Source of the DNA: an uncultured Selenomonadales bacterium
Lineage (GTDB): Bacteria > Bacillota > Negativicutes > Selenomonadales > Selenomonadaceae
Length of the DNA: 50,245 bases
Assembly: GCA_937915725.1 (NCBI GenBank)
Contig: CALGGV010000013.1
Location: forward strand, 1 to 50,245
Direction: 5' to 3'
The notes under the pieces were generated by a model. That model saw only the letters and a list, made by a program, of their open reading frames with translations. It searched no databases and was not told where the DNA came from. Positions 16,086-41,290 of the stretch are shown here, one piece after another (positions within the stretch are counted from its first letter, which is position 1; each line of letters opens with the position of its first letter). A program made the translations under genes and the position numbers.

Positions 16086-16227
16086 TGTCTAAAAATCGCA
16101 AGCGGTAATTTTCAATAAATGCTACAACACATTAAAAAATTGCAAGAAAAATTTTCTACAGATGTGAAGGAATATTTCAAAGTTTGCATAAGTGTTATTA
16201 AGAAATTTTTGTAAGAAGGGATTTTTA

Positions 16228-19171: not shown

Positions 19172-21210
19172 TTCACAACCTCAAAAATATTTGGCAAAAT
19201 CAAACGCTGTTTAAATTTTTCGCTAAGTTCAAGCCTGCCCCTTATGTATTCGCCGAGCATTGGTTCAATTTTTTTGCTCCAGTCTTTTTTGTCAACATTA
19301 TCCCAATCCAGCATTAAATTTAATTCTTCCAAAATTTTTTCCCACGCCTCAAACATTCCTTGACTTTTGATATATTTTTTGAAGGCGTCAAGATATTTTT
19401 CAGCGTCAACTTCTTTATAAGGATTTTTAAAGCCGTTTGAATCGAAAATTTCTGTGTAGGCAGTTTCACTTTCAATAAAAAGTTTTGGCGTAACTTTGAT
19501 ACTGCCGAAACCTAAAGATTTTCCCATTCCGATTTTGTACGCGGGATTTTTTGCGCCATTTAAATTGAAAATCATCATAAGTGCGCCGAGTTCAATTTCA
19601 CTTAAATTTTGGAAACGAATTTTAGATTTAAAGCGGTTGCCTTTCTTCAGCGGCGTTAAATCTTTCGTCATACGTTTTTCAGGCGGTTTTCCAACGTCAA
19701 GATTTCTTTCGGCGTCATTCGCCTTCCAATTCCAATTTTTGTTGTGCCAGTAAAGTTTGTAGCCGCGCAGTTTGACAGAATCTTTTTCCCAATGATTTAA
19801 AATTGCGCCGCCTTGCTTTAAATAAAGTTGGTAAGAAGTCGGATTAGGCTGCATAAGTGGATGAGCGGCGGCAGTTTCCATAGTTTCAACAGTAGAAATT
19901 GGTACAGCGTCTTCAAAACAAACGCGGCTTGCCCAATTTTCCTTACTGCCAAAAACCGCGTCCGCAAAATCTATAATTTTTTCACTTTGCAAATTTTCCG
20001 GTACAATATCGCCGATTGAATTTTTGTACGGAATTCTAAAGCATTGCCCGTGCCCAAACGCCGTAACCTGTCCGCCTTCGTATAAAAAATGACACGGTAT
20101 CAAAGATTTAACGTCATCAGGAAGAGAATTACCACAAAGTTTTTCAAGTTGTTCACGTTTCAAAATTCCTCTGTCTGTGAAAAGATTGACGCCGCGCCGG
20201 TTTCTGTCATGTTCATAAGATTTTAAAACTTCGTCCGGCAATTCAATTCTGTGCTTTTCGCTCCAGTCAATATCAGCAAGACTTAAAAAACGAATTATTT
20301 GCTTGCCGTAATTTAATTCTGCATTTTTTTTGGCAATTTCTTCAGCAGTCAACCCTTTCAAACTTGCACGGTATTCTTCGTATTTTTCCCTAGTCAATAA
20401 ATTTTTGTAATTATCTGGTTTTCTTTGCGTATCTGCCCATTGGTTTCCGGTTACAATGTACGCAATTTCACCGTACCATTTAACGCGAGAATCTATAAAT
20501 CTAACCGGACCGAATACTTCTTGAAAATCTTTAATCATAATAAAATCATTTTTGCGCTCAATATTAGGTTTCAGCGGCGCAATAAAATATTTGTTGTCTG
20601 TAGTTTGAATCAGAAAACCGGGACGCGCATTTTTGCCTTTTTCGCCTTCCATTCTTGCCTTGTAGGTGTTGCATAAATCTTCCATCCATTTTGGCGCGCC
20701 ACTTGGAGCCATTAAACACCGAAAATAAATATGCTCGTCATTAAAATCTTCGCCCTTGCCTTGCGATTTTGTACCGCCACGAAACGCGCCGCAAGTTACA
20801 ATTTTAAAAATATTTTTGAACATACCGCGCAGAGAACTTCCGGAAATTATAAATTTATCGACGGGCGCAAAACTTTTTTTACCATTGCCGCCAAAAAATA
20901 ACGGAGTCCAATTTTCAATTTCAAGTTCAATTTCGCCGCTGATTTTTCCAAATTTTTTAATGTGATCTTTGAAATCGTCAACTGTTTCAATTTCTGAAGG
21001 CAAAATTTTTTCAGGCAGTGAAACAAAATTATAAGGCGCGGTTGCAATTTCTGTTGAAATTTTTGGCGCAAAATGTTTAACGGGAGCATTTTTTTTAGGC
21101 GGCGGATTTTTTTTGCCTTTGCTGTAGGAAAAATTTTTTTGCGCCGGTTTTTCTTTCGGCAATGCTACGCCGCCAAATTTTGCTAATTGTTCTCTCCAAT
21201 CTTCAGCCAA
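19168..21210 (-). CDS. Large type III RAMP protein (Cas7-like with a big insertion; TIGR03986-like)
   Basis: Lys/Pro-rich N-terminus followed by APYNFVSLP; RAMP motif ISGSSLRGMFKN; C-terminal G-rich loop GMGKSLGFGSIKV. TTG start with an AAGAAGGTG SD. Confidence 0.65.
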   Translation of the reverse strand: MAEDWREQLAKFGGVALPKEKPAQKNFSYSKGKKNPPPKKNAPVKHFAPKISTEIATAPYNFVSLPEKILPSEIETVDDFKDHIKKFGKISGEIELEIENWTPLFFGGNGKKSFAPVDKFIISGSSLRGMFKNIFKIVTCGAFRGGTKSQGKGEDFNDEHIYFRCLMAPSGAPKWMEDLCNTYKARMEGEKGKNARPGFLIQTTDNKYFIAPLKPNIERKNDFIMIKDFQEVFGPVRFIDSRVKWYGEIAYIVTGNQWADTQRKPDNYKNLLTREKYEEYRASLKGLTAEEIAKKNAELNYGKQIIRFLSLADIDWSEKHRIELPDEVLKSYEHDRNRRGVNLFTDRGILKREQLEKLCGNSLPDDVKSLIPCHFLYEGGQVTAFGHGQCFRIPYKNSIGDIVPENLQSEKIIDFADAVFGSKENWASRVCFEDAVPISTVETMETAAAHPLMQPNPTSYQLYLKQGGAILNHWEKDSVKLRGYKLYWHNKNWNWKANDAERNLDVGKPPEKRMTKDLTPLKKGNRFKSKIRFQNLSEIELGALMMIFNLNGAKNPAYKIGMGKSLGFGSIKVTPKLFIESETAYTEIFDSNGFKNPYKEVDAEKYLDAFKKYIKSQGMFEAWEKILEELNLMLDWDNVDKKDWSKKIEPMLGEYIRGRLELSEKFKQRLILPNIFEVVK

Positions 21211-21808
21211 TTTTTACACCTTCTTTGGAGCAACTGTTCTTACTCATCGCAGTTGCAGGTTCAATCGCCACAAAACGATAATCACTGTAGCCGCAAAGTC
21301 CGGTTTTTTCGTCGCTTGAAATATAATTGCGCGTCAAAAGTCCGTACCATTTAGAATTTTTATCTTCGCAGGGAATTTCCATGCAAAGTTTACGTTGCTT
21401 ATCAAGGAGTTTTATAAAACCGTCGGACACGCTTTTATTTTCGCCCCAGAGCCGCGAAAAACTGTCTACAAAGTACCTTTCGCCGCCTTCGGTATCTTTT
21501 ATATATCTGCCGCAAAAATCGCCGTCAACGCGCTTTAAATGCAATTCTGCAGTTTCGTTAAAAATTCTGCACTCAAGCCAAAATTCCGGCGTAATTTCTG
21601 CGCGCGCAAAAAGTTTTTCGCCTTCAAATTTTCCCCAAATAATATTTTGAATCTGCCACGCCACAAAAACTGCGCGAGCGTTTTTAAATTTTTCCTTGAC
21701 AAGATTTTCAACGACATTCAAAGAAATTTCGCAGTTTATATTTTCAATTTCAGTGGAACATTGGCAAATTTTTAAGCCAACATTTTTTGCAATTTTTAAG
21801 CCGTTCAT
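21203..21808 (-). CDS. csx19: Small type III-D-associated protein (Csx19 / TIGR03984-like, tentative)
   Basis: About 200 aa, sitting between RAMP genes as in III-D loci. ECRIFNETAELHLKR resembles my recollection of the Csx19 motif. Both ends overlap the neighbouring genes. Confidence 0.45.
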   Translation of the reverse strand: MNGLKIAKNVGLKICQCSTEIENINCEISLNVVENLVKEKFKNARAVFVAWQIQNIIWGKFEGEKLFARAEITPEFWLECRIFNETAELHLKRVDGDFCGRYIKDTEGGERYFVDSFSRLWGENKSVSDGFIKLLDKQRKLCMEIPCEDKNSKWYGLLTRNYISSDEKTGLCGYSDYRFVAIEPATAMSKNSCSKEGVKIG

Positions 21809-23121
21809 TCAGATTCACCCCAATTCTTAACAGCCGCGACAAATTCTGAAAGTGCGTCTGTATCGCCTTCAGTAACTTTGCCATTTTCGCCGAGCTTGTA
21901 AGTTTTGCCGTTAAAATTTATTTCGGCGGAAATTCCCTGCAAAGTACCGCGTCCAATGCATTTTTCGCCGCCAATAGCAACTTTTCCCAGCCATAAATCA
22001 CGCAGTAAAAAAATTGCCAAGCCCGCCTCAAAATTTTTTGCACTTAAAATTTCAAAATGTATGTGCAAAGTCGGCGCGTTAATTTTCTGATAAACCGGCT
22101 TAGTTTTGAAAAGCGCGCCCTGCAAAGTTCCGCCGGTAAATCTGTCAATTTTATTTCTTGCGTGTTCAAATTCAGAAACTTTTTCCGGCTCAATGTAACT
22201 TTCAGAAACTATAAAGCGGCTTTTAATTTTTTCGTCGCCTTCAGAATTGCCCATTAAATTATTTAAAAATTTTTCGTCAAGATTCAACTTTTGAAAAATG
22301 TACTCGGCGCGGTGGCGGAAAATTCCTTTCAAACTTGTACCCGGAATTACAAAATCTGAAAGACTTTTCATACTTACAGCCGAAATTTTTTTATTGCGGT
22401 CGTCGTCAGAAATTTCATAGTCTCGCACAATGAATGACGAATTGAATTTAAAATCCGCGTCAACAACAAAATTTTCACTGTCTGCCGAAATAATTTGAGC
22501 GGAGGAAATTTTTTCAGACGCGGTTTTATCTGTAAGCCAAGCGATAACGTCAGCTTTTTTTGTAAAATCGAAAAATTGGGCGTCAATTTCTTCAGCCGCC
22601 GCAAGTCCAAAACCTTTTGCAGTCAACGCGCCTAACCTTATACCGTTTTCAAGTTTGCCCAAAATTTCGGCAATGGTATTTTTAATTTGTTCAATTTCGG
22701 CAAAGTGGCAACCGCGCAAATTTACCAGCATATTAATTTTGCCGCGTGCGCCGCGTTCCACCGCCTCATAATCGTATTTTGCGCCGTCAACGCCCGTACC
22801 CGTCCAGCTGTTAATTTTTACGCCGTCACGGGAAATTATTTCGCCGCCCGTAAGTTCAATATCTTCAATTTGAATCGCACTTTGAAAATTATCCTTGTCG
22901 CCGAAAATTTTTTTGAAAACCTTAGAGCCGCTAAAATCTTCACGCAGGACTCCGCAAATTGAAGTTCCCGGGATAAACGGTACGCCCGCTTGATTTTTCA
23001 AAACGTGAATATCTTTGAAATTGTCAAAATTTTCGCCCGCGCCGTCTCCAATTAAAAGCGGCGATTTTAAAACCAATTCGCCCGTAATTTTAATTTTGCC
23101 GATAATCTGTGAATCAGTCAT
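21805..23121 (-). CDS. Fused double Cas7 (Csm3/Cmr4-like) RAMP protein
   Basis: Two RAMP modules: GVPFIPGTSICGVLRE and VIPGTSLKGIFRHRAEY, with a terminal G-rich loop GGEKCIGRGTLQG. Confidence 0.7.
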   Translation of the reverse strand: MTDSQIIGKIKITGELVLKSPLLIGDGAGENFDNFKDIHVLKNQAGVPFIPGTSICGVLREDFSGSKVFKKIFGDKDNFQSAIQIEDIELTGGEIISRDGVKINSWTGTGVDGAKYDYEAVERGARGKINMLVNLRGCHFAEIEQIKNTIAEILGKLENGIRLGALTAKGFGLAAAEEIDAQFFDFTKKADVIAWLTDKTASEKISSAQIISADSENFVVDADFKFNSSFIVRDYEISDDDRNKKISAVSMKSLSDFVIPGTSLKGIFRHRAEYIFQKLNLDEKFLNNLMGNSEGDEKIKSRFIVSESYIEPEKVSEFEHARNKIDRFTGGTLQGALFKTKPVYQKINAPTLHIHFEILSAKNFEAGLAIFLLRDLWLGKVAIGGEKCIGRGTLQGISAEINFNGKTYKLGENGKVTEGDTDALSEFVAAVKNWGESE

Positions 23122-24643
23122 TTTTGCCGCCGCCTTTCATTGCCGCGTTTTTCCGCGCAAATCTCAAAAAGTTTTGCAGGTACTCATAACAAAATTCATC
23201 TGCAAAATCTGTAAACTTGAAATTAATTTTCTTGAAAAGATTTTCATCGCCGAGCGAAATTGTTTTATTTTCGTAGGGTAATTTTGCCGCGCCGGTCAAA
23301 ATATTATACAGTGTTTGTTCTTCCAGATAAATTTTTTTCAGATTGTCTTGAAAAATGTTGCCGTCCTTACTTTCAGTATTAACTTGTTTACTGAAATTTT
23401 GACGAACATTTTCTTTGCCGACGGTTGAAAGTAAATTGTCAAGGCGTGAGAAAAAGTGCGTAAAATTGCCGCCGCGCAGTTGTGAATTTAATTTTTCGGC
23501 GTCTTCGTGTGCGTAAATTCTCAACTGCTCCAAGTATTTATTAAGCAAAATCTTTCGTGCAATTTCTAAAGTTTCGTCTGAAAAATTTTCCGGTCTTATA
23601 ATTTTCGGCTTTAACTTTGCTAATATGAAATTTTCCGGTTGCCAAAATCTAAGTTGCCCAAAACCTTCTTCAGTGCGCGTACCAAATCCGCTGTACATTT
23701 TTTCGCACAAATTATTTTTATCGGCGTCAGTCAAACTTTTTAAAATTTCAAGTTCAAAAACTGTACCGGCGGCAAGTGCCATAACGCGCGGGCGTTTCAT
23801 TCCCCACGGTACTACAAAATTTTCAATTTCAATTCCGGACGCAAAAATTTTCCCCAACTTAAAATTTTTTTCAAGCTTATCTAAAACTGCAGCCTGTAAA
23901 ATATTTTCAGCACTTATAAAATTATCTTCAATCGCAATTAACGGACTTTCAAGCCGCAAATAAATTTTTTCGCCCAAATTTACCGCCTTAATTTCCTCAA
24001 CCGCGCCAAAACTAAATCTGCACTTGCCGTACTGCGTAAATTTTGAACGCCCGAGCCGCGTCTCAAAAGTTTTATTTTCTAACTCTAATTTGTCAATCAA
24101 AGATTTTTCGCCCAAAATTTCCCCGCAAAAAATCTGTCCTTCTTCCAACGCCTCGTAATTGTAAATGTGCCCTTCCTCACTTTTGCCGGAAATTCTTTCC
24201 TTGCCTTCACTGCGCGACATATGCATAAAAATATTTTTATTTATTGACGCAGTAAAAATTTTTTCGCCGTCAACAATTCCATAACCGCGCAAAGATTTAT
24301 AACCGGCGGGCGGCGTATCTTTCAACAAGTCTGCAATATTATTTTCGTTGCCGGTACCTTTTTTGCCGCGCTGAAGTGAAAGTGGCAAAATAAAACTGCG
24401 CGCGCCGTTAATTTCAGGATTAGCCGAAAGAAATTTTAAGCCGCCATAAAATAATTCTTGAAAATTTTTATCGGCGTGCGCCTTATTGCCCAAATTTTTT
24501 TCTTGCACATAACGCGCCGCCAAAATTCCACGAATTATCGAGCCGCGAATTTCTGAATGACTGCCGGTCATAATTGTTGAATTGCTTGCCGCCGCAATTA
24601 CAACCGGCGATAATGTTTCAATTTTAAATTTAAGCCGGTACAT
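23114..24643 (-). CDS. csx10: Cas5-family RAMP (Csx10-like)
   Basis: N-terminal RAMP motif GSHSEIRGSIIRGILAARY and G-rich loop GFGTRTEEGFGQLRF. The ATG at 24643 is 7 nt after an AAAGGGGG SD, so I prefer it to the listed GTG at 24649. Confidence 0.55.
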   Translation of the reverse strand: MYRLKFKIETLSPVVIAAASNSTIMTGSHSEIRGSIIRGILAARYVQEKNLGNKAHADKNFQELFYGGLKFLSANPEINGARSFILPLSLQRGKKGTGNENNIADLLKDTPPAGYKSLRGYGIVDGEKIFTASINKNIFMHMSRSEGKERISGKSEEGHIYNYEALEEGQIFCGEILGEKSLIDKLELENKTFETRLGRSKFTQYGKCRFSFGAVEEIKAVNLGEKIYLRLESPLIAIEDNFISAENILQAAVLDKLEKNFKLGKIFASGIEIENFVVPWGMKRPRVMALAAGTVFELEILKSLTDADKNNLCEKMYSGFGTRTEEGFGQLRFWQPENFILAKLKPKIIRPENFSDETLEIARKILLNKYLEQLRIYAHEDAEKLNSQLRGGNFTHFFSRLDNLLSTVGKENVRQNFSKQVNTESKDGNIFQDNLKKIYLEEQTLYNILTGAAKLPYENKTISLGDENLFKKINFKFTDFADEFCYEYLQNFLRFARKNAAMKGGGKND

Positions 24644-24645
24644 TT

Positions 24646-25308
24646 TCACGCCCCCTTTGCTATTTTTTCGACTGAAAATTTTTTATCCAAATTTATTATT
24701 TCGCAGGAAATTTTTCCAAAGCCACGATTTCTTTTTGTACCGGCGGCTGTCAAATTTTTTATCGCCAATGCTATTAAATTTAAAATTTTGTCGTTAGGAT
24801 TCAAAATTTCAATCTTGCCAAAAAATTCTACGCCCGCGTTTAAAACGTTCAAATTGTGCAGAGAACCTTTGGCGGCAATTCCATTTTCCAACGCCGTCTG
24901 ATAACGAATTGAAGTAAAAGTTTTCAAAACTTCGGAAGGGCGGAAAATTTCAGGATATTCTTTCTGTAAAAAATCCCATTCGGCGCAAATTTTTTTGTAC
25001 TTGTCAAACGGGCAAATATAAAAATTCGACACAACAATTTGAATATCTGAAACATTTCCCGAATCGTCTGACATTCTGTGAAAAAGATTTTCCGGCGTCT
25101 CCAAATTTTCAGTATCCATTCCGGCAAGTTCAAACATTTCAAAAATTTCAACCGCACTTTCATAAAGCAAGCCCTTAAATCTTTTGGCGGGAAAATAAGG
25201 CAAGCCGTAACTGTCATGAACTATTTCGGCGTCAATATTTACATTTGCTTGACCGGAGCCCAAATGTATTGGCGATTCAACCTTAATTTTTACTTCAAAT
25301 TCTTCCAT
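24646..25308 (-). CDS. Cas7-family RAMP (Csm3-like)
   Basis: GSGQANVNIDAEIVHDSYGLPYFPAKRFKGLLYE and the C-terminal loop GTKRNRGFGKIS. GGAGGTG SD. Confidence 0.7.
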   Translation of the reverse strand: MEEFEVKIKVESPIHLGSGQANVNIDAEIVHDSYGLPYFPAKRFKGLLYESAVEIFEMFELAGMDTENLETPENLFHRMSDDSGNVSDIQIVVSNFYICPFDKYKKICAEWDFLQKEYPEIFRPSEVLKTFTSIRYQTALENGIAAKGSLHNLNVLNAGVEFFGKIEILNPNDKILNLIALAIKNLTAAGTKRNRGFGKISCEIINLDKKFSVEKIAKGA

Positions 25309-26954
25309 TTTTCAGCCACCTCCGGCGAATAAAAATCCATTAATTCTATTGCGTCAACATAGGGCGTGCGCGGCGAATTTTCCGTACTCCACAATAAATC
25401 CGTTATGCAAGTTTCCCAATTCGGCACTACCGGCAACTTTTGCCCTTGAACTTCTAATTGCTGTAAAAATTTTGCTGTATCGTCTTTGCCGCGCTGTAAA
25501 ATTCCCCGCAATTCTTTAATTTTGCCTTGCGTCATAACGTACGGAAATTGCGTTGTGCAGGATAATAAATTTTCGATATTGTAACGGGATTTTTTTTCGT
25601 TGCCGACTTGATAAGGTCCAAAATGCAAATTGCCGCGTGCGCCGGTATATTCACGCTCTCGAATTTGTTCAAGCGTCGGAGCTTGTTCGCCGTGTAAAAT
25701 CGCAAAATCTAACCAACTTGAAATATTTTTTTCAGCGCGCATAGATTCTTTGGCGGCGTCGCAAAGTTGCTCGGCTAATACGTAGCCTCTAAAAAATGGA
25801 TAAGCCGTCGGTAAAATCGCAACGCCCGCGCAACAATCCATTTTCCTTGAAACTTCTTGAGTTAAATTTTCCGGCGAATTTTTGGGCGTTTCCTCGTTCA
25901 AAATTTCCATTAAAGTTTTTGTAAATAAAATTGCCATATTCGCAGGGCAAATGAAAGTTACGTCATCGCCGCCAAGTATCAGCGGGCGTATCGGCAAAAT
26001 TTTTTCATTTTTTAAATCTAAAATATCTGCGAAAAGATTTTCAGTTTTTGCGGCAATAATTTTCAAAAGTAAATCTGCAAACGCGCCTTCAGTTTTTCTG
26101 CGAATTTCCCTTGAAAGTTTGCGCCTTTCCTGCAAATTTTTACAACTGCGAAATTTTACGCCCATATTATTGCCGTCAATGTGAATTATCGCAAAATAAT
26201 TTTCGCCGTCTTTTTGTCCGAGTTCGTCAACTTTTGTTGGAAATTCCCATTCTTCCATTCGCACGGAAGAATTTTTTAATTTAAAAATTTTATTGAAACG
26301 CGCCTTTAAATTTTCATTGGCAACTTTTGAAATTTTCGCCTTAACTGCCGTTTCTTGCGAATAAAATCTAATTTCATCATTCGGCTTTACAATTTTTTCT
26401 GAATCGCAGAAATTCGCCGCCTCGCCGTCAATTTCGCAACTTAAAGTTAAGCCGGTGTAAGGAACATTCACGGCAGGGAAAATATTATTCTGATTATTTT
26501 TCAATTCGCTATAAAGTTCAGAAATATCATCTTGATTCAATTTGCCGTCGATAATATTCAATTCGCCCAACGCCACACCAATTTTTAAGCCGGGGCGTTT
26601 TTCCAAAAGTTTCAAGGAAAAATCTTTGACAACTTCACAGCGTTTATCTTCCTTCGCAGAATCAAAAAGAATTAAAGCATTGCCGCCGCCAATATAAGCC
26701 ACGCAACAACTTTTCATATTTTCCCACGGCGTCTCAATATCTTTTGCGGCGTCCCACACAGTGTCTTCAGCTGACGAAAAATCATCTTCCTCAAAAAAAT
26801 TTTCCAACGTTTCTTTAACCAAAATATCAAAAAAAATTCTGTCCACAATGTACGACGCGCCTATATTTGTTCGCAGTAAATTTCCGGAATAAATGTACCA
26901 CTGAATGGAGCGCGTATCAAAAAGCAACGCGTTATATTTTATTTTCTCTTCCAT
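25290..26954 (-). CDS. cas10: Cas10-like polymerase/cyclase subunit; short form with no HD domain
   Basis: Starts directly with a palm-1-like segment (LLFDTRSIQWYIY...IGASY...YIGGGNALILF). The second palm has AIIHIDGNNMG and an intact GGDD (LILGGDDVTFICP). At 554 aa it has no room for an N-terminal HD nuclease. Confidence 0.7.
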   Translation of the reverse strand: MEEKIKYNALLFDTRSIQWYIYSGNLLRTNIGASYIVDRIFFDILVKETLENFFEEDDFSSAEDTVWDAAKDIETPWENMKSCCVAYIGGGNALILFDSAKEDKRCEVVKDFSLKLLEKRPGLKIGVALGELNIIDGKLNQDDISELYSELKNNQNNIFPAVNVPYTGLTLSCEIDGEAANFCDSEKIVKPNDEIRFYSQETAVKAKISKVANENLKARFNKIFKLKNSSVRMEEWEFPTKVDELGQKDGENYFAIIHIDGNNMGVKFRSCKNLQERRKLSREIRRKTEGAFADLLLKIIAAKTENLFADILDLKNEKILPIRPLILGGDDVTFICPANMAILFTKTLMEILNEETPKNSPENLTQEVSRKMDCCAGVAILPTAYPFFRGYVLAEQLCDAAKESMRAEKNISSWLDFAILHGEQAPTLEQIREREYTGARGNLHFGPYQVGNEKKSRYNIENLLSCTTQFPYVMTQGKIKELRGILQRGKDDTAKFLQQLEVQGQKLPVVPNWETCITDLLWSTENSPRTPYVDAIELMDFYSPEVAEKWKNLK

Positions 26955-27059
26955 AATTTCCCCTCCCTAAAAAAATTTTTCCACAGCTAAAAAAAATATT
27001 CCTGCAACAAAAAGCCGCTTTTGTGTCCTCAAAAAATATAAGTATTAAAAACAAATTTA

Positions 27060-27088
27060 TTGACAAAATATGGAGCAAGGAATAGAAT
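27060..27088 (+). promoter_or_regulatory. Near-consensus sigma-70-type promoter for the sheath-like operon
   Basis: TTGACA (27060-27065), 17-nt spacer, TAGAAT (27083-27088). A TAAGGAGGG SD follows, 6 nt before the GTG start at 27140. Confidence 0.6.
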
Positions 27089-27139
27089 AAATTAACAATG
27101 AAATAAATCTGAATCGGTTAACGATAAGGAGGGTTTTAG

Positions 27140-29332
27140 GTGGCAAAAATTATTAGCCAGACTAACGCTACGATGCTTTTTGAGGAAATTAATCCTGAAA
27201 AATTAGACTTGCTCACGTTAGTCGGCGATGTCAAAGGCTTTGACAGTTTGTCAGACGAAAAAATTAAGGAAATCCTGGAAACTCTTTGTGTAAAAAATTT
27301 TGATGAGTTCATTGAAAAATTTGATCCCGTTGTTTATTCTTTCTTCAACGCAAACACACAAAAAGTTATGTACACCTTGAAAAAGCCGGAGTCAATACCG
27401 GACGATCTTTTGACTGAAATTCATTTGAATTTGCAAAATGATTTTCTTAGAATGTTGCTTACGCTTGTTGATGCAAAACGTTCTCAAGGTTTACTCAATG
27501 TCGATTTTAAATTTGAAAATTTGACAGATTTAATTTCGCCCCACAAAATTATTGAAGATATTAAGCAAAATCGTAAAGAATTGCGCTATACTTATTCGCA
27601 GTACGTACAACTTGATGACGACGACCCCAAAAAGTTGGATATTGGCGATAAGCTTAACATTATGATGGAAGAGGCTAGCGTCAACTACAATAATGTTATG
27701 GCAATGTTGCCTTTGGCGATTGAGGATATTAAAACGCGGCTGTTACTTTCAAGCGGTGGCGGCGGCGGCGATTCTGCTCCACTTGCATTGGGCGTCTTGA
27801 CTATGGGCGAACAGGGCGAATTGAAAGTTATCGAGGCTCCTAAAGAAGAAAAATCCACTGCCCTTGTTACACTTGATGATAAAGTGAATGAAGGCTTAAT
27901 TGAAGTTATCGGCGAAGATTACGAGGCACTCAACGAAGAAAATCACAACGATTACGTTAAAGCACTTGTAACGCGCACTTTCTGTCCTTTGCCTTCAACT
28001 ATGGTTAGTGAAATTGATATTGCAAAAGAAGTTGAAAATTATAACGCCTATCTGCAATTCTACAAAGAATCTAAAGACGATTTCATTAAAACTGTTAAAC
28101 CGCTGATTGAAAAAATTCTCGGCGTCAGACTTTTCTTTGAACAATATCCTTCAAAATTGCGCGGTATGAGACCAACTTTGCTTATCACAAATATTAGCAA
28201 TGAAATGATGGCTAAGGCTCCAAATATTCCGCGCCTTGTTACTTATCTTAACACTGTAAACGGCAAAAATAATTTTGACAATACAATTTGGTATGCTATT
28301 TTCCCGTCGGTTGCATTTGATGCAGGCAGTAAACCTAAATTGACTCGTCAAAGATTTAAAGGCAATGACGCGCCTACAAATACCAATGTTCACAGCGTTG
28401 AATCCTTAACCAGAATTTTGGACGTTTTAAAAGATTTCCGTATTCAATGTTTCTTCAGTTTCGCCTCAAATGAAAAAAATACTTTCAACGCAATGGCTAC
28501 TGAAGGTATTGAAAAATATATTGATAAATCTTTGCCGCTTACGGCTAAGGCGTTCAGTGAATTTGCTATTCCTTGTTTCCCTAACTTTACTATAATTCCA
28601 AAAGATAAATCCGGCGTTGTTCTTGATACAAAAATGGAAGTCAACGAAAATAATTTGGCTGAAATTTCAAAGGCAAAACAGGATATTATGAAACTTTGGA
28701 TTGACGGCGTTTACGTTGGCGCGGCTTATGTTGCCGCCGGGCTTGTTGCTACTTATCAAGACCCGGAATATCTGAAAATGATTTTCCGTCGTAATATTGA
28801 TAATGAATTGCCGGGCGTTCGTTTCGATATTGAAACCGGCGATAATTCACTTTTGGTTTACACCACGCTTGCCAAAGAAATTACCGGCTTTACCAATCCT
28901 ATCAAAGACGAAATTAACAAAAAATGTTTCGGCTTTGTATTCTCTTCAGAAAATGCAATGTTTAACGGAATGCCAATTACAAACGTTATGGTTTACAAGT
29001 CCAGAAACTTGCTTTACGATGAAGATAACGGCGTTTACGAGCCAATTTATAAAACTCAAGTCACAACTTATATTCAAAGAGTTTTGCGCAATATGTCCAG
29101 CGATTTCAAACAAGATAAAATTGTGCGTTTCTTCAGCAGTAACCCCGCGTCGCAGTCCAGCAAATGGCTTGACAAACGCGAAAGACTCAATGCTATTATC
29201 GGTACCGGCGATGATATTTCTTACAATATTGACGAAGAAAACGGAATTTGCACTTTGAATATCACTTTCAATGGCAATGTTAAAAATCTTGAAATTGAAA
29301 CAAGCCGCACAACTTCTGCAAGACACGTTTAA
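27140..29332 (+). CDS. Contractile-sheath-like protein, apparent TssB(VipA)-TssC(VipB) fusion
   Basis: The N-terminal 170 aa or so carry LLTLVGDVKGF, VKNFDEFIEKFDPVVYSF and VDFKFENLTDLISPHKIIEDI. These are in the same order as the VipA motifs I recall (LLAIGDYT; IDKMTFDEVL; LRFKTLKDFEPENIVQQV). A Gly5 linker (27755-27769) follows, then about 520 aa collinear with remembered VipB landmarks. The call is by eye only. Confidence 0.5.
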   Translation: MAKIISQTNATMLFEEINPEKLDLLTLVGDVKGFDSLSDEKIKEILETLCVKNFDEFIEKFDPVVYSFFNANTQKVMYTLKKPESIPDDLLTEIHLNLQNDFLRMLLTLVDAKRSQGLLNVDFKFENLTDLISPHKIIEDIKQNRKELRYTYSQYVQLDDDDPKKLDIGDKLNIMMEEASVNYNNVMAMLPLAIEDIKTRLLLSSGGGGGDSAPLALGVLTMGEQGELKVIEAPKEEKSTALVTLDDKVNEGLIEVIGEDYEALNEENHNDYVKALVTRTFCPLPSTMVSEIDIAKEVENYNAYLQFYKESKDDFIKTVKPLIEKILGVRLFFEQYPSKLRGMRPTLLITNISNEMMAKAPNIPRLVTYLNTVNGKNNFDNTIWYAIFPSVAFDAGSKPKLTRQRFKGNDAPTNTNVHSVESLTRILDVLKDFRIQCFFSFASNEKNTFNAMATEGIEKYIDKSLPLTAKAFSEFAIPCFPNFTIIPKDKSGVVLDTKMEVNENNLAEISKAKQDIMKLWIDGVYVGAAYVAAGLVATYQDPEYLKMIFRRNIDNELPGVRFDIETGDNSLLVYTTLAKEITGFTNPIKDEINKKCFGFVFSSENAMFNGMPITNVMVYKSRNLLYDEDNGVYEPIYKTQVTTYIQRVLRNMSSDFKQDKIVRFFSSNPASQSSKWLDKRERLNAIIGTGDDISYNIDEENGICTLNITFNGNVKNLEIETSRTTSARHV

Positions 29333-29356
29333 TTTTGAAGTAGAGGGGTTTTTGAT

Positions 29357-29782
29357 ATGGGTTTTAGAGTTTCAATTACCGGCGGCAATGACGTTTCTTT
29401 TGACGAAGGGATTATTACCGGCGTAAACTTTATTTCAGATACGCCCGATAATGCAAATGCAAGATCAACAGACCTTAGCGTCATTATGAAAATTACCGGC
29501 AGAATTAATTTTTCACTCGGCGCAGAAATTAGCGATTCAACCGTTGAATTGGCAAATTGGGCGTTGATGCCTTCAGATCAAGCGGATTGTTACCGCAGTG
29601 TTGAAGTTCAAGTCATAAACGGCGGGCAAGTTGTACGCCAGTATACTTATCCTAACGCCTTTGTTATGGATTACACTGAAGATTTGAACGATGAAGAAGG
29701 CGTCGGTACTTTTACCATTTTGCTGAAACAAAAGAAAGATTTAACGGCAAAAGTGGAACTTAAAGGCAATTTTGAGGCATAA
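29357..29782 (+). CDS. Hcp/TssD-like tube protein candidate, paralog 1
   Basis: 141 aa. The pattern ...W.....YRSVEVQV..GGQVVRQYTYPNAFVMDYTEDLNDEEGVGTFTILLKQ resembles the Bacteroidetes-type TssD (PF17642) layout. It lies immediately downstream of the sheath-like gene. Confidence 0.45.
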   Translation: MGFRVSITGGNDVSFDEGIITGVNFISDTPDNANARSTDLSVIMKITGRINFSLGAEISDSTVELANWALMPSDQADCYRSVEVQVINGGQVVRQYTYPNAFVMDYTEDLNDEEGVGTFTILLKQKKDLTAKVELKGNFEA

Positions 29783-29797
29783 AGGCGGTGATTTTTT

Positions 29798-30223
29798 ATG
29801 GCATTGGCATTTTCTACGGCAGATCCCGAAATTACGCTTGAAGAAGAAAGTACTAAAAAAATTATTTTCAGAGTCGAAATTCCGCAAGACAGCCGCGCGC
29901 GTACAAAAGATGTTGGCGTAAGTTTAACTGTTATTGGAAAAATTATGGCTGATACTGCACAACTCGGCAACGCGGCTGACAGTACCGCAAAGCTTATGGA
30001 ATGGTCGGTTATTCCGGCAGAGAAAAAAGAGGCTTACCGCAGCGTTACCTTAAAAGTCACAAGCGGCGGAGTTGTTACGCGCCAATATGAACTTCCAAAC
30101 GCTTTTATTGTCGATTATCATGAAGATTTTGAAAGCGATGACGGTATTGGAGAATTTACGCTTGTTCTTAAGCAGATGAAAAATAAATTGGCTGATGTAA
30201 AAGTTACAGGCGGTTTCACCTGA
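29798..30223 (+). CDS. Hcp/TssD-like tube protein candidate, paralog 2
   Basis: 141 aa and clearly paralogous to 29357..29782 (YRSVTLKVTSGGVVTRQYELPNAFIVDYHEDFESDDGIGEFTLVLKQ). Confidence 0.45.
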   Translation: MALAFSTADPEITLEEESTKKIIFRVEIPQDSRARTKDVGVSLTVIGKIMADTAQLGNAADSTAKLMEWSVIPAEKKEAYRSVTLKVTSGGVVTRQYELPNAFIVDYHEDFESDDGIGEFTLVLKQMKNKLADVKVTGGFT

Positions 30224-30243
30224 TAAAAAAATTTTGCAAAAAA

Positions 30244-30278
30244 GGGAGACGGCTGAATTTTTTAATTCGCTGTCTCTT
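30244..30278 (+). terminator. Intra-operon hairpin (attenuator/partial terminator candidate) between the structural and accessory genes
   Basis: GGGAGAC GGCT GAATT tttt AATTC GCT GTCTCTT gives a stem of about 14 bp with one bulge, followed by a weak U-tract (TATTGT). Confidence 0.35.
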
Positions 30279-30301
30279 ATTGTATGGAGAGAATTTAATT
30301 T

Positions 30302-30784
30302 ATGAATTATTATGAAATTCTCGGAGTGGACAGACAGGCAACGGCTCAAGAAATAAAAAAAGCGTATAAAAAGTTGGCGAAAAAGTGGCACCCCGATTTA
30401 AATCGTGACGACCCAAAAACCGCTGAACAAAAAATGAAAGAAATTAATGTTGCTTACACTACCCTTTCAGATGAAGTTGCCAGAATTGACTACAACAAAA
30501 AACTTGACGCCGAAAAGGCAAATTCTGAACATTCTACAAAAACTAAAAAATCTGACGCTCATAAAACCGGAACTGCCAAAAAATCTTCCACCGGTACTTC
30601 AACTGCAGGGGTTAATTTTAAAAATATTCACTCCAGTTTTGAAACTTTTTTCGGTTTTAATCCTAAAACGCACGAAGTTACAAATGAAGATAAATTAAAT
30701 ACATTTTCTGCAAATAAGAAAAAGAAAAATCCGCTTGATACAACAGATTTTTTTGAAAAGTTTATGGGCTTTAAAGTTAAATGA
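30302..30784 (+). CDS. J-domain (DnaJ-like) protein with a Lys/Thr-rich tail
   Basis: [33 protein letters not shown] contains the HPD motif. It has no zinc-finger or C-terminal DnaJ domains. Confidence 0.85.
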
Positions 30785-31320
30785 CACGGTACGATTTTTA
30801 TACGGCTTTAATCGGCATCATCAGTGTATTTTTTTCGCTTGCAATTTATTTCGGCGAAATTAATTTTTATGCAAAAATTTTTCTGATAATTTGCGGCGCG
30901 GCGATTTTTTCTCATTCGACTTTTACTTTGTATCGCATCTTGAAAGAAAAAAATTCTGCGCAAGAAAATTTTTACTCAAAAAATATCAGTCAAATTTCCC
31001 TGTTGAATCAAAAAGGCGAAATTATTTCTTCATGGGAACTTTATGGCAAAAATTCGGCGGTTATCGGAAAAGACTTTGGAGAAAATCAAGTTGATATAGA
31101 TTTAAGCGAAACTCCATACGCGGCAATGATTGATATTGAACACGCGGTTTTAAATTACGCGGACGGGAATTGGTACATTGAAGACTTGGACAGCCAAAAC
31201 GGTATTTCAATAAAAAAATTCGGGCAGGAAGAAATTTATAAATTAAGTTCGTCGCAGCCTTGCAAATTAGATTTTGGCGATATTATTTTTATTGGTGTTT
31301 GCCAACTAAAATTGAATTAG
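30781..31320 (+). CDS. Membrane-anchored FHA-domain protein
   Basis: Two N-terminal hydrophobic helices, then an FHA-like core (SAVIGKD...[30 protein letters not shown]). ATGA overlap with the J-domain gene. Confidence 0.7.
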
Positions 31321-31332
31321 AGAGGAATTTTT

Positions 31333-31875
31333 ATGAACGGTTTAATTCGCTGTCAAAACGGGCATCTTTTCAGCTCCCGCCGTTACGGTACAATTTGCCC
31401 TTATTGCAACCTTGAAACTGCGACGCCGGAAAAAAAAGAAGTACCTGTGACGGACGAAGAAACTATAAACGCGCTTTTAATGAGTAATATTCGCCCTGTT
31501 TGCGGCTGGATTGTTTGCATTGAAGGCGCACGCAAGGGCAAAGATTACAAAATTCACGCCGGAAAAAATTTTGTCGGTCGCGCAGATGATATGGATATTC
31601 AAATTTTGGGCGATAACGCAATATCCCGCCGCAACCACGCAGTTTTAGTTTACGACCCCAAAAAACATGAAACAGTTTTGTTGCCCGGCGATTCAAACGG
31701 AATTGTTTATTTGAATGACGCGGCTTTATATTCGCCGACAGTTTTGAGCGTTTATGATGTTATCGAACTTGGCAACAGCAAATTTTTATTTATTCCGTTT
31801 TGCGGCGATCATTTTCGCTGGGAAGATTTACCGGAGCAAGACGATAAAAATTATTTGCAGTACGGAAAGGAATAA
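31333..31875 (+). CDS. Zinc-ribbon plus FHA-domain protein
   Basis: N-terminal C..H...CPYC ribbon, and an FHA core (NFVGRADDMDIQILGDNAISRRNHAVLVYDPKKHETVLLPGDSNGIVYLND). Confidence 0.7.
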   Translation: MNGLIRCQNGHLFSSRRYGTICPYCNLETATPEKKEVPVTDEETINALLMSNIRPVCGWIVCIEGARKGKDYKIHAGKNFVGRADDMDIQILGDNAISRRNHAVLVYDPKKHETVLLPGDSNGIVYLNDAALYSPTVLSVYDVIELGNSKFLFIPFCGDHFRWEDLPEQDDKNYLQYGKE

Positions 31876-31880
31876 TTTTA

Positions 31881-32702
31881 ATGGCGGATATTTTAATTCC
31901 GGCATTTCTTTTTTTGTGTATGGCGGCTTTACATTTTTTGAGAAAAAAAGAAATTTCAACGCCTAAAAATTTTTCTGCAGAATATGAAATTGGCGCGGCG
32001 TCAACTTTCGGCACTCGTGAAATTCAACAAGATTATTTTGGCATAAAGAAAAATAACGGCGTTTTGTTAATGACATTGGCGGACGGTATTGGAGCCGACG
32101 GCGAATTTGCGGCAAAATTGGCTGTCGATACTTTCAGAGATTTATTTGAAAAAGAAAATGCAATTATAAAGCCGCAATATTTTTTTAAACGCGCCGCCAA
32201 TGCCGCTCACAAAAAAATTACAAACACTTTGGAAGAACGGCAAGGCGAAAGTTCAATAGCCGCCGTAATTTTGAAGGACGCGCAATTTTTTTATACTGTA
32301 GTTGGAAATTGCCGCGTTGCAGTTTTTAGGGGCGGCGATTTAGTTCCGGTTTCTGAAGGACAAACTATCGATATTTTGGCAAGACACAGTTACAGCGAAG
32401 GAAAAATTTCAAGGCAAGAAACTTTGGAATTGCTTAATAAACACCGCAGTTATAATTTTTTGGGGCAAGATTCTTTTTCTGAAATTGAATTTTTGAGCAA
32501 GCCGATTGCACTGCAAAAAAAAGATATGCTTGTAATTATGAGCGAAGGAATTTTTAACACTTTACGTTGGGTTGAAATTGAATCCGTCTTGGAAAGAAAT
32601 TTTTCAGCCCAAAATACAGCAGATGAAATTATTAAACTTGTGAATAATTCGCCGATAGTTTCAAAAGACAACGCCACAATTTTAATTTGTCGTTGTCAAT
32701 AA
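31881..32702 (+). CDS. PP2C-family Ser/Thr phosphatase with an N-terminal TM helix
   Basis: LADGIGADGEFAAKLAVDTF, VVGNCRVAVFRGGDLVPVSEGQT, VIMSEGIF and DNATILICR match the PPM motif order. Confidence 0.75.
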   Translation: MADILIPAFLFLCMAALHFLRKKEISTPKNFSAEYEIGAASTFGTREIQQDYFGIKKNNGVLLMTLADGIGADGEFAAKLAVDTFRDLFEKENAIIKPQYFFKRAANAAHKKITNTLEERQGESSIAAVILKDAQFFYTVVGNCRVAVFRGGDLVPVSEGQTIDILARHSYSEGKISRQETLELLNKHRSYNFLGQDSFSEIEFLSKPIALQKKDMLVIMSEGIFNTLRWVEIESVLERNFSAQNTADEIIKLVNNSPIVSKDNATILICRCQ

Positions 32703-33116
32703 TTTAAATTTCAATTCTACGCCGCCTAAAATCGCCGTGAAAGTGTCTTGAAGAATTTTTAGGATTTTTTTACAAAATTTTATTTTATTAACAAGTCGGC
32801 ATTTTAAAACGCCTAGCAAAGAAAGAATCTTTCGCCCTGCAGGTAAAAACGGAGTGCAGCGGGCGTCCTTCGATACTTCAAATATTAAATTTGTAAATAT
32901 ACTCTAAGTAATTTCCTTAAAAAATTTTAAATCCTTTAAATTTTGATTTTAGTGCGTGGAATTTGGCAATAAAATTTTCCAATTTCAGTAACTTAAATTT
33001 CAATTCTACGCCGCCTAAAATTGACGAGAATGTGTCTTGAAAATTTTTTACATAAAATTTACCTTAAAAAATTTTTAAACCCCTTAAATTTTGATTTTAG
33101 CGCGTGTAAAGGTTTA
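32703..33116 (+). repeat. Tandem duplication of a roughly 115-nt segment; the first copy is interrupted by a MITE-like element
   Basis: ttaaatttcaattctacgccgcctaaaat...gtgtcttgaa occurs at 32703 and 32993. ccttaaaaaatttt..aaattttgattttagYgcgtg occurs at 32925 and 33062. The segments are contiguous in copy 2 but separated by the element in copy 1. Confidence 0.7.
32757..32908 (+). repeat. MITE-like structured repeat copy inside the sheath-like operon
   Basis: taggatttttttacaaaatttt...ttaacaagtcggcatttt...cggagtgcagcgggcg...aaatttgtaaatatactctaag. Confidence 0.6.
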
Positions 33117-35264
33117 ATGATGAGAAAATCCAACAGCATTTTTAAAACGGCATTTGTATCGGAGGCGGGCGCGGAACTTGCCAACAATGATTATTTTGCT
33201 TATGTTGAAGATGATGATTTTGCTTGCTACGTTTTGGCGTCGGGCATTACTGATTTTGAAACTTCAGAGGCGGCAAAGGAAGTTGTTGAACATTTAATCT
33301 TGAGTTTTGAAGAAAAGCCGAGTATGTCAAAATCAACTCTTTTGCAATATATGAACGAAACTAACGAAAGACTTTTGAACAGCACTCACTCGCGCAGATT
33401 AAAAGCCTCCGTGATAATGTTGGTTACGGATTATGAAAAATTTCGGTACGTTGCTGCCGGTAATGTCCGCTTGCGAATGTACCGGCAGGGACGTTTTTTT
33501 TTGAAATCTTCGGATATGTCGTTGGCGAATGATTTAATCGAAAAGGGCGAAAGTTATACCCCGCTTGATAAACATGAGGAACGGCATAATTTATACGCTT
33601 ATCTTGGCAAAAAAGATTTTTTTAAGCCTTTTATTTCAAAAGTTCAGAAATTGGCGGACGCAGATATTATTTCTTTGTATTCGCAGGGCTTGTGGGAACA
33701 TGTTGACGAACAAGAAATTGACGAAGTTTTTGCAGAGGCATCGGATAAGCCTCAAGAATCCGTTGATTTTTTGGAAGAAATTTTACTTTCACGTCAGCCG
33801 GAAAATCTGAAAAGTTACACTGTAGCCGCAATTTTTATAGATAAAATTTTTCGTGACCCCGAACGCGAAAGAAAACGTTTGCTTTACATAAAAATTGCCG
33901 TCATTATTATTATCATTCTCATTATAGTGGCAATTATTTTTTATATTTTGGACAGAATTTATCAAGACAAAGTACAAGATTTTGAAAGTACAATGCAACA
34001 ATCGCAAGAATTTATGGCGAATGGAAATTATAAACGTGCGCAAGAAGTTTCAAAAAAAGCTCTGGATTTAGCGCAGGAATTGAAACGCAATGAAGACGTA
34101 AAAAATATACAAGAAGACTTGATGATTTTAGATAATATTGTACAGGCTGATATTGCCTACAATGAAAAAAATTATTCGCTGGCATATGAAGATTATATGA
34201 ATGCTCTGAAATATTCTTCCGGAACTGATAAAGAAATTCGCAATTACATTCAACGCCGTTTGCATATGATTGAAAATCGGCTGGATATTCAGCAATTTCT
34301 GTTGTTGGGCGATTATCTTTTTCAAAATGGCGAATACGACGAGGCAGAATCTTTATATTTGAAGGCGATTGAGAGAGCCTCAACAGTCCACGATAACGAA
34401 GGGCGAAATAGCGCAACAGCCGCGCTTGAAAAAGTTTATGATAAACGCGCTGAACTGCGCAAAGACGCCGAGCAAAAATTAGACGCCAAAAAACAAGCCG
34501 CCTTGAATGACGCACTAAAAAGAGGCGATGATTTATTGGCGGCGGGCGATATTGAGGGCGCAGAAAAAGCTTATCGTGACGCAAGAAACCTTTCAGATAA
34601 TCCTGCAGACCGTACACAAACGGACGCGGCATTGAATAAAATTAATTCAGCACGTGACGACAAGTTGAATAACGCTGTACAAGCCGCGCTGAAAAAAGGC
34701 GATGATTTATTGGCGGCGGGCGATATTGACGGCGCAGAAAAAGCCTATCTTGACGCAAGAAACCTTTCAGATAATCCTGAAGTAAGAATTCAAACAAATG
34801 AAGGCTTAGGAAAAGTTGCAGAGGCGCGGGATAAAAAAATTTTGGAAGAAAGAACTACAGCTGAAGAACGCCAAAAACTTTTTGATGACGCTGTACAAAC
34901 TGAACTTAAGGGCGATTCTGCCTTTGAATCCGGCGATTACGCCTCCGCGCAAATGTACTATATGACGGCTATTGAAAAATTCAGCAATTTATCTGAAGAG
35001 CCAAAAGTTAAAGCTATTCAAAATAAATTCGACGCGTCTAAATCTAAAGAAACTGAATCACACTCTCAAAAAGCAGACGCCGAAAAAGCTGAAGAAAACG
35101 CCCGCAATTTCTACATTGAGAAAAATTTTGCAGAGGCACAGGCGGCGGCAACTCAAGCTAAACAACTTTACAGCGAACTCGGCATGAAGAGTAAAGTTGA
35201 CGAAATGGATATTTTACTTCAACAAATTGCCGTTGACTCTATGATTTCTGATTCCTTAAAGTAG
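33117..35264 (+). CDS. PP2C-like (possibly degenerate) domain, TM helix and helical-repeat (TPR-like) protein
   Basis: The ATG at 33117 lies just past the duplicated segment. The N-terminal domain follows PP2C order but reads ASGITD where DGMGG is expected. TM helix IAVIIIIILIIVAIIFYIL. The C-terminal helical repeats include a near-identical 58-aa duplication. Confidence 0.6.
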   Translation: MMRKSNSIFKTAFVSEAGAELANNDYFAYVEDDDFACYVLASGITDFETSEAAKEVVEHLILSFEEKPSMSKSTLLQYMNETNERLLNSTHSRRLKASVIMLVTDYEKFRYVAAGNVRLRMYRQGRFFLKSSDMSLANDLIEKGESYTPLDKHEERHNLYAYLGKKDFFKPFISKVQKLADADIISLYSQGLWEHVDEQEIDEVFAEASDKPQESVDFLEEILLSRQPENLKSYTVAAIFIDKIFRDPERERKRLLYIKIAVIIIIILIIVAIIFYILDRIYQDKVQDFESTMQQSQEFMANGNYKRAQEVSKKALDLAQELKRNEDVKNIQEDLMILDNIVQADIAYNEKNYSLAYEDYMNALKYSSGTDKEIRNYIQRRLHMIENRLDIQQFLLLGDYLFQNGEYDEAESLYLKAIERASTVHDNEGRNSATAALEKVYDKRAELRKDAEQKLDAKKQAALNDALKRGDDLLAAGDIEGAEKAYRDARNLSDNPADRTQTDAALNKINSARDDKLNNAVQAALKKGDDLLAAGDIDGAEKAYLDARNLSDNPEVRIQTNEGLGKVAEARDKKILEERTTAEERQKLFDDAVQTELKGDSAFESGDYASAQMYYMTAIEKFSNLSEEPKVKAIQNKFDASKSKETESHSQKADAEKAEENARNFYIEKNFAEAQAAATQAKQLYSELGMKSKVDEMDILLQQIAVDSMISDSLK

Positions 35265-35272
35265 GTTAAGTT

Positions 35273-37951: not shown

Positions 37952-38290
37952 TTTGCCCTGCTATAAAAAATTTTGATAGTTTTGTAGTCCAGCTATAAGT
38001 CTACCCGGAAAAATACCCTGCGGGGCTTTTTATTTTTCAAATATTTCAGTTTCAAGGGATTTGAGAATAAGCAACAAGGGAGCTGTTAAAATCGACAGAA
38101 TCAATACCGGCGGTTAAACCAATAAATTTAACAGAGCCGGAACCGATTTTAGCGATAAAATCATTGCCATCGTTGAACATAGAATCGTTGCCAGCACCAG
38201 CCCCCACTTTCAAGAAAATTTTTTTATGTCTCGAATTTGCATTTGTAATTGTTTTAAAGTGATTAATTTCAAAGTCCCTCCCTCGCTTTG

Positions 38291-38593: not shown

Positions 38594-38670
38594 TTTGGAT
38601 CCTCCATTACAATGCAAAATTACCTTTGCTGATACGGCGTGTACGTGCAGATTAAGGAAATCTTTCAAGC

Positions 38671-39819: not shown

Positions 39820-39884
39820 AAATCATCAACTATTTTTTTAATATAAAAGCCTCAACCATTTTCTGATTGAGGCGTTATTTTCAT

Positions 39885-41281: not shown

Positions 41282-41290
41282 TCCTTTTAC

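Follow-up and report, generated by a model that had tools for sequence, protein, structure and literature searches.

The window analyzed here, a 50,245-nucleotide stretch of DNA from an uncultured Selenomonadales bacterium, carries two operons that face away from each other across 185 bp (26955–27139). Judged by its family matches, the minus-strand operon encodes the effector module of a type III-D CRISPR system, with a GGDD Cas10. The plus-strand operon is a cassette of nine genes, which begins with a 730-amino-acid sheath-like protein and ends with a putative, very divergent Hsp70-like ATPase. A first-pass annotation of the same DNA had treated the 185 bp as one control region shared by both operons, had taken the layout as a possible sign of co-regulation or functional linkage and had speculated that nucleotide signaling or RNA sensing by the type III complex triggers the sheath module. 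The coordinates and the divergent orientation that it gave are borne out by the start codons and ribosome-binding sites. The cas10 gene starts with an ATG at 26954 on the minus strand (complement of the CAT at 26952–26954), preceded by the ribosome-binding site GGGAGGGG (complement of 26960–26967), and the 730-residue open reading frame (ORF) starts with a GTG at 27140 on the plus strand, preceded by AAGGAGGG at 27126–27133.

Two divergent operons and the DNA between them

The minus-strand operon comprises seven cas genes. The first, cas10 (25290–26954), encodes a protein of 554 residues without an HD domain, which matches PF22335 at 1.9e-09 (above the cut-off) and has a GGDD palm with the motif LILGGDDVTF. 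It is followed by a cas7/csx7 RAMP gene (24646–25308, 220 residues, assigned by family searches) and a csx10-like Cas5 variant (23114–24649, 511 residues), whose match to TIGR02674 (1.7e-15, 57.1 bits) falls below the curated cut-off of 177. Next are a double Cas7, cas7-2x (21805–23121, 438 residues), with RAMPs matches at 9.8e-37 over two stretches, and csx19 (21203–21808, 201 residues), which matches TIGR03984 at 1.8e-29 (102.6 bits, cut-off 35) and has PF27799 Csx19 on record. An insertion-containing Cas7 of the TIGR03986 family (19168–21210, 680 residues; 4.6e-95, 320 bits, cut-off 161) and cas6 (18383–19171, 262 residues, from family searches) complete the operon. All of these effector genes are intact, and the earlier description of the operon as type III-D-like with a Cas10 GGDD cyclase is upheld by PF22335, TIGR03984, TIGR03986 and the LILGGDDVTF motif.

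Both content and order (cas10, Cas7 and Cas5(csx10), cas7-2x, csx19, insertion-containing cas7, cas6) are those of III-D/III-Dv loci, as in the III-Dv system of Synechocystis (PMC11026444); the subdivision of III-D is treated elsewhere (PMC13294483). As in those systems, the window's Cas10 keeps the GGDD motif and lacks HD, and in the window's relatives the genes are followed downstream by cas2, cas1 and an array. In contrast to III-Dv, which has a cas7-cas5-cas11 fusion, Cas7 and Csx10 are encoded here by separate genes, and the copy in the window differs from III-D loci in having neither adaptation genes nor an array. TRF, repeat and array searches found no CRISPR array in the 50-kb window, which also has no cas1 or cas2, although the rest of the genome could hold an array. 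What is present is a lone degenerate repeat, ACCGCTTGCGATTTTTAGAC (16087–16106, minus strand), with three mismatches to the repeat core of the relatives (0 expected by chance) and a terminator-like hairpin after it. The repeat lies in DNA with 87% identity to the end of the array and the nitroreductase flank in a related locus, L084. The place occupied in L084 by cas2, cas1 and the array is taken in the window by a chemoreceptor (dCache-HAMP-MCP) gene in three ORFs (16192–18225, plus strand). L084 holds an intact copy of this gene 10 kb beyond its cas genes, on the other side, which suggests an inversion or deletion. Because array, cas1 and cas2 are missing and one degenerate repeat is left, the locus in the window is, as far as its sequence can tell, a decayed copy that has lost its adaptation genes and array but still has its effector genes intact. 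If crRNA reached it in trans, the III-D complex would function by itself, an RNA-guided RNase equipped with a Cas10 cyclase.

The first-pass annotation had remarked that the Cas10-like cyclase has no visible signal receiver. No CARF, SAVED or CorA receiver family from Pfam, NCBIfam or PADLOC was found in the cas genes, and the cas locus of the window contains no Csm6, Csx1 or CorA-type ancillary gene. A receiver is not visible in the loci of the III-D relatives either, so this is a trait of the whole III-D lineage rather than of the window alone.

The nine genes of the plus-strand cassette start with the sheath-like protein (27140–29332, 730 residues) and two Hcp/tube-fold paralogues of 141 residues each (29357–29782 and 29798–30223), which are 35% identical to each other. 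They are followed by a J-domain protein (30302–30784, 160 residues; DnaJ, PF00226 at 1.7e-24) and by two FHA proteins. One of these (30781–31320, 179 residues) has an FHA family match and a hydrophobic N terminus and is probably membrane anchored; the other (31333–31875, 180 residues) has an N-terminal Cys-rich stretch with one C-x2-C pair, a possible zinc ribbon. A PP2C phosphatase (31881–32702, 273 residues, family match) precedes a protein that combines a PP2C-like domain, a transmembrane segment and TPRs (33120–35264); the gene call gives the latter 714 residues from an ATG, and the ORF is open from a TTG at 33021. The last gene is that of the divergent Hsp70-like ATPase (35273–37951, 892 residues), which has a conserved N-terminal extension; homology to the relatives ends at 37952.

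The gap between the two operons is composite. On its cas side, the cas10 leader (26955–27021, minus strand) comprises the ribosome-binding site GGGAGGGG and a TGCAGGAA motif (27006–26999). Nucleotide homology to the cas relatives L082–L088 stops 53–67 nt upstream of cas10 (27007–27021). In an alignment of six cas10 upstream regions TGCAGGAA is invariant and the rest of the leader is loosely conserved. The motif lies ∼50 nt upstream of cas10 in the window, L082, L084, L085, L087 and L089 and does not fit the sigma-70 consensus; it may serve the cas operon as promoter or regulatory element. On the other side, homology to relatives of the sheath operon begins at most 22 nt ahead of the 730-residue gene, from ∼27118, and so takes in the ribosome-binding site and the gene. 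The intervening junction (27022–27117, ∼100 bp) is common to neither set of relatives and was seen again in one contig only, L091, which comes from another sample and is 99.2% identical over 3 kb, and hence is from the same species.

A sigma-70-like promoter for the plus-strand operon, TTGACA-17-TAGAAT (27060–27088), is present as the first-pass annotation reported. It matches the consensus at 11 of 12 positions, and its TTGACA (27060–27065) is 80 nt upstream of the start. The number of promoter-like sites in the surrounding 700 bp, three at a lenient threshold, does not differ significantly from that in shuffled sequence (2.1 ± 1.7). Despite these count statistics the site is credible, because most of the rumen-clade relatives compared carry a similar one, with 9–11 of 12 matches, 62–106 nt upstream of their own 730-residue gene; the exceptions are L009, where it lies at 153 nt, and L004, which has none. 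The promoter-bearing DNA of these relatives is not alignable and their upstream neighbors differ, yet the distance of the site from the gene is similar. Cassette loci with a co-oriented vWA gene have no promoter-like site upstream of the 730-residue gene. The best reading of the promoter is that it belongs to the cassette and not to a control region shared by both operons.

For cas10, the promoter scan found no sigma-70-like site with at least 9 of 12 matches within the 185 bp. On the plus strand TTGACA overlaps a minus-strand TTGTCA (27060–27066). An inverted-repeat search of the gap returned only short AT-rich repeats, 8 nt long, that flank the promoter; since they are short and AT-rich in DNA of ∼37% GC, they are probably due to chance. 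The GC profile is uniform over both modules without a compositional break, so composition argues neither for nor against recent transfer. These comparisons show the gap to be made up of the cas leader, the ∼100-bp junction and the cassette's promoter and ribosome-binding site, with no evolved shared control region: what had been taken for one region is two module-specific leaders joined by DNA found only in this species.

Neighbors of the two modules in other genomes

Searched with the 730-residue gene, a genome collection yielded the cassette from at least 333 species of Firmicutes. The 80 best loci, taken with 10 kb on either side, represent Selenomonadaceae, Sporomusaceae, Lachnospiraceae, Oscillospiraceae, Erysipelotrichaceae, Clostridia, Paenibacillus and Brevibacillus. 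Wherever these loci are long enough, they almost always have all nine genes in collinear order, and the 730-residue protein is 60–70% identical across classes. DNA similarity between the window and the 80 loci is confined to 27118–37952. None of the seven Cas proteins was found by tblastn (E < 1e-5) within ±10 kb of the cassette in any of the 80.

The genes that do lie next to the cassette are of other kinds. In 53 of the 63 loci with at least 2.5 kb of upstream sequence, the gene immediately upstream encodes a ∼575-residue vWA protein, which is absent from the whole 50-kb window. The close relatives that lack it have mixed upstream genes (a glycosyltransferase, AcrB, kinases and two-component genes, an MmeI-type enzyme, DnaB), with no Cas family among them. 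In cultured Selenomonas the cassette is surrounded by ruvA, ruvB, queH, spoIID and queA. In cultured relatives, then, the cassette stands in core-genome surroundings and not in an accessory island; the earlier suggestion of a coincidental juxtaposition in such an island is retained for the coincidence and not for the island. CRISPR arrays were detected in three of the 80 loci, all from Selenomonas species and all 7–8 kb from the cassette. We rejected these as a link between CRISPR and the cassette: ruvA, ruvB, queH, spoIID, queA and the vWA gene lie between, and the repeat is a different one.

The reverse comparison started from contigs that encode cas10 homologs. Rumen Selenomonadaceae and Quinella commonly carry relatives of the window's Cas10, at 62–80% identity. 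In five independent contexts, with Cas10 at 75–80% identity, the cas gene order is kept, and the operon of the relatives runs on into cas2, cas1 and an array (repeat ...ACCGCTTGCGGTTTTGAAAC). Upstream of cas10, L082 and L084 have TraG/VirD4-like genes, L085 has MJ1673/MJ1674-like genes, and L089 and L090 have a reverse transcriptase (RT) gene, cas2 and cas1; the L087 contig starts 445 bp upstream of cas10 and so offers no neighbor for comparison. The region upstream of cas10 is a rearrangement hot spot in this III-D lineage.

Further features were noted at these loci. Immediately upstream of cas10, L082 has a second cas6 and a seven-repeat array with a different repeat (8422–9710), and in L089 the RT-cas1-cas2 adaptation module holds the same position. 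PF27247/PF27248 (MJ1673/MJ1674-like) genes recur beside the III-D lineage, at 3379–7168 in L085 and at 3231–5039 and 19139–19516 in L089, and may be accessory genes of it. No match to either family was found among the window ORFs scanned against Pfam, a scan that several ORFs lay outside.

We consider the juxtaposition to be a lineage-specific rearrangement of two unrelated modules, which are chance neighbors and not a coupled system, with a probability of roughly 0.88. This verdict is based on the absence of cas genes within 10 kb of the cassette in all 80 loci, on the different neighbors of cas10 in its relatives and on the species-specific junction; the decay of the cas locus, the lack of a receiver family in the cassette and the cassette's own promoter also speak for it. 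The adjacency occurs in one rumen/bioreactor Selenomonadaceae species only, so the layout is no evidence of joint function. A rearrangement in this lineage would have put the III-D module and the cassette back to back, and ∼65 nt of conserved leader has stayed with the III-D module. The recurrence check that the first-pass annotation had proposed thus came out negative from both sides, with neither a homologous sheath/Hsp70 operon near cas10 or RAMP genes nor a cassette beside the cas10 relatives, and co-regulation or a functional link can no longer be drawn from the layout.

Several points weigh on the other side. The comparison covers the best 80 of 333 loci, and type III genes of very divergent sequence could have escaped tblastn with these Cas proteins. 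The juxtaposition is stable to the extent that it appears in two samples. The cas effector genes are intact, and selection may maintain them. In addition, the overlap of the −35 hexamer with the opposite-strand TTGTCA leaves room for some transcriptional interplay.

This last point leads to the alternative that survives best, which is nevertheless unlikely: a secondary coupling at the level of transcription only, in which divergent promoters placed together by chance interact, through supercoiling, the overlapping −35 element or one repressor site, and their products do not. The shortness of the gap, the TTGACA/TTGTCA overlap and the AT-rich repeats on either side of the promoter would all suit it. 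However, the gap contains no credible minus-strand promoter, the cas-module element TGCAGGAA is 54 nt from the plus-strand −35 hexamer, and the inverted repeats are of the short, AT-rich kind that chance probably explains.

Somewhat less probable still is a role of the cassette itself in anti-phage defense or conflict, with its place beside CRISPR due to the clustering of defense genes. Its vWA, FHA, PP2C and Hsp70 parts are known from predicted conflict systems (PMC7159879), there are weak PADLOC matches to the candidate families PDC-M21C and PDC-M61B, and a phage-type methylase gene lies 1.2 kb downstream. Yet the PADLOC matches fall on generic PP2C and ATPase parts, what lies beside the cassette in other genomes is housekeeping or miscellaneous in kind and not defense genes, and the cassette is strongly conserved and syntenic rather than diversifying.

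The functional coupling first envisaged, in which target-RNA sensing by the III-D complex would yield a Cas10 nucleotide signal that sets off the module of sheath, tube and Hsp70 for abortive infection or delivery, could draw on the GGDD motif kept in Cas10, on the lack of a known ancillary effector in the cas locus or its relatives and on the two operons diverging 185 bp apart, but we regard it as highly improbable, given zero co-occurrence in the 80 cassette loci and in the five independent cas10 contexts, a junction specific to one species, no CARF, SAVED or CorA family in the cassette, the loss of array and adaptation genes from the cas locus, and a cassette that is far more widely spread than this III-D lineage and, being 60–70% identical across classes, unlike a defense accessory.

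Proteins of the cassette

The cassette can also be read from its own proteins. All nine were compared with Pfam, NCBIfam and PADLOC, and the 730- and 892-residue proteins with PHROGs as well. The search for CARF and SAVED folds that the first-pass annotation had called for gave no CARF, SAVED or CorA-type family match in any of the nine, with structure-level searches made for two of them.

The 730-residue protein belongs to a family that forms 546 clusters at 50% identity and is absent from Pfam and NCBIfam. It matches no Pfam, NCBIfam, PHROG or PADLOC family, and 62 relatives are likewise without a Pfam or NCBIfam match. An AlphaFold (AF2) model based on 62 family clusters is confident, with a pLDDT of 85.8 and a pTM of 0.87. 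Its sole standout match in the PDB is the sheath of the Azotobacter vinelandii type VI secretion system (T6SS), 9n4v_A (E 2.5e-3, probability 0.99, TM 0.22/0.38), and among viral models it clearly matches only two unnamed Myoviridae/Caudovirales proteins (E 4e-5 and 3e-4). By hhalign, comparison of the family profile with T6SS sheath profiles, built from five plasmid T6SS loci, gave probabilities of 0.2% for TssC and 2.3% for TssB. Given this negative profile comparison and the lack of a family match, we do not place the protein in the TssBC family. With the weak similarity of its predicted fold to a T6SS sheath and two clear Hcp/tube-fold genes directly after it, the protein is probably sheath-like at the level of fold and context, and not by family membership; the earlier term "sheath-like operon" is kept in this restricted sense.

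The Hcp/tube fold of the 141-residue paralogues is clear from a predicted structure of the first of them, whose alignment was drawn from database homologs. At E ≤ 1e-3 the model (pLDDT 78.9) is matched by 42 PDB entries, every one a tube protein, with TM 0.46–0.66 in either normalization. The best is the AFP tube 6rao_F; the others include the tubes of the PVC, Anabaena and Streptomyces contractile injection systems (CISs) and T6SS Hcp proteins such as Flavobacterium Hcp1. In a profile search of PDB sequences the only match, a weak one, is Hcp1 6bdc (E 0.15).

The 892-residue protein carries the Hsp70 phosphate-binding motifs AIDFGTS and IDCGGGTTD...GSTDFGGNN, in agreement with its first description as Hsp70-like. 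It has no Pfam match, and a homolog from Paenibacillus touches PF00012 below the cut-off (E 0.0033). The only PDB match to its profile, DnaK at E 1.5, falls exactly over the signature formed by these motifs. Sequence searches with this protein and the 730-residue protein against PDB sequences, PHROGs and PADLOC otherwise gave nothing usable. Because of the motifs, the DnaK and PF00012 matches and the J-protein in the same operon, we read it as a putative, very divergent Hsp70.

No baseplate (TssE/F/G/K or gp25/gp6-like), spike (VgrG/PAAR), membrane-complex or tail-fiber protein was found among the nine. A kinase domain was found neither in the window's cassette nor in the extra genes that two of its relatives, L022 and L063, carry. 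Many relatives have two such extra genes between the PP2C-TPR and Hsp70 genes (17751–19297 in L022 and 17521–19525 in L063). In Selenomonas these encode a Sel1-repeat protein and a protein of 241 residues, which weakly matches TssD/Hcp (PF17642, E 0.0056) and would add a third tube-like protein, an extended one. The window's cassette has neither gene.

Around the PP2C-TPR gene the window also contains repeated DNA. A 43-nt direct repeat (32919–32961 and 33067–33109, 88% identical, 148 nt apart) lies in the gap ahead of the gene, which is ∼420 bp long versus ∼80 bp in relatives. Within the gene, a 111-nt repeat (34511–34621 and 34685–34795) represents a duplicated TPR-like unit.

In NCBI records the 730-residue protein is labeled "transcriptional regulator" and the 141-residue protein "membrane-associated protease 1." Nothing in these data supports either label, and both appear to be mislabeled. 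A full-text literature search found no description of the cassette operon, which is not proof that none exists, and no paper on the label "membrane-associated protease 1."

Two other parts of the window were noted. Directly after the cassette, 38342–41936 (minus strand) holds a run of small unannotated ORFs and a phage DAM-like methylase (39133–39819, PF22555 at 3.2e-64), perhaps what is left of a prophage, or else a small mobile element. At 5359–7107 and 7259–9010, two paralogous methyl-accepting chemotaxis proteins (4HB-HAMP-MCP) of 582 and 583 residues are encoded in tandem.

Possible function of the cassette and its significance

We tentatively propose, as a possibility that falls a little short of even odds, that the cassette is an undescribed Firmicutes-wide machine: a sheath and Hcp-fold tube polymer without baseplate or spike, controlled by phospho-signaling and serviced by an Hsp70/J pair. 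The 730-residue protein and the two Hcp-like proteins would form a membrane-associated tube-in-sheath polymer. Its assembly would be gated by FHA/PP2C Thr-phospho-signaling, as in T6SSs, with the vWA protein joining in most genomes and the kinase supplied from elsewhere in the genome. The dedicated Hsp70/J pair would assemble, disassemble or recycle the polymer, the role that ClpV has in T6SSs.

Control of T6SSs by Thr phosphorylation involves Fha, PppA and the vWA-bearing kinase PpkA. The cassette resembles these systems in combining FHA and PP2C proteins, and in most genomes vWA, in one operon, in having Hcp-fold genes directly after a large protein that, by fold, comes closest in the PDB to a T6SS sheath, and in having a putative dedicated ATP-dependent chaperone, for which a ClpV-like role may be supposed. 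In contrast to T6SSs, its sheath-like protein has no profile similarity to TssB/TssC, its nine genes include none found to encode a baseplate, spike, membrane-complex, ClpV or kinase protein, its putative chaperone is an Hsp70/J pair, and its hosts are Firmicutes, mostly monoderm.

Extracellular and cytoplasmic contractile injection loci such as AFP, PVC and the Streptomyces CIS consist of 15–20 phage-tail-like genes, among them genes for the baseplate, the spike, a tape measure and an AAA+ ATPase. The likeness of the cassette to these loci is in its tube protein, with AFP 6rao_F as best match and the tubes of PVC, Anabaena and Streptomyces also matching; baseplate, spike, tape measure and AAA+ ATPase were not detected in it. 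A further resemblance is to predicted conflict systems containing Hsp70 (Kaur et al., 2020; PMC7159879), which likewise bring together in one neighborhood an ATPase of the Hsp70 type, a partner with a J domain or TPRs, and vWA, FHA and PP2C elements. Those systems, however, center on GTPases or MoxR ATPases with variable effector domains, whereas no GTPase, MoxR or effector domain was found in the cassette, which is conserved and not diversifying.

The back-to-back placement in this species should therefore not be used to argue, by guilt by association, that a new effector of type III CRISPR has been found, and the part of lasting value is the cassette itself rather than a CRISPR link. Its carriers include gut Lachnospiraceae, Faecalibacterium-type metagenome-assembled genomes, Clostridium botulinum and Paenibacillus, and cultured ones are Selenomonas ruminantium, Enterocloster clostridioformis and Pelosinus. 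Contractile sheath-tube systems are regarded as either Gram-negative T6SSs or phage-tail-like CISs with full baseplates. If the proposal is correct, a conserved pair of sheath-like and Hcp-like proteins in hundreds of Firmicutes species would widen that picture.

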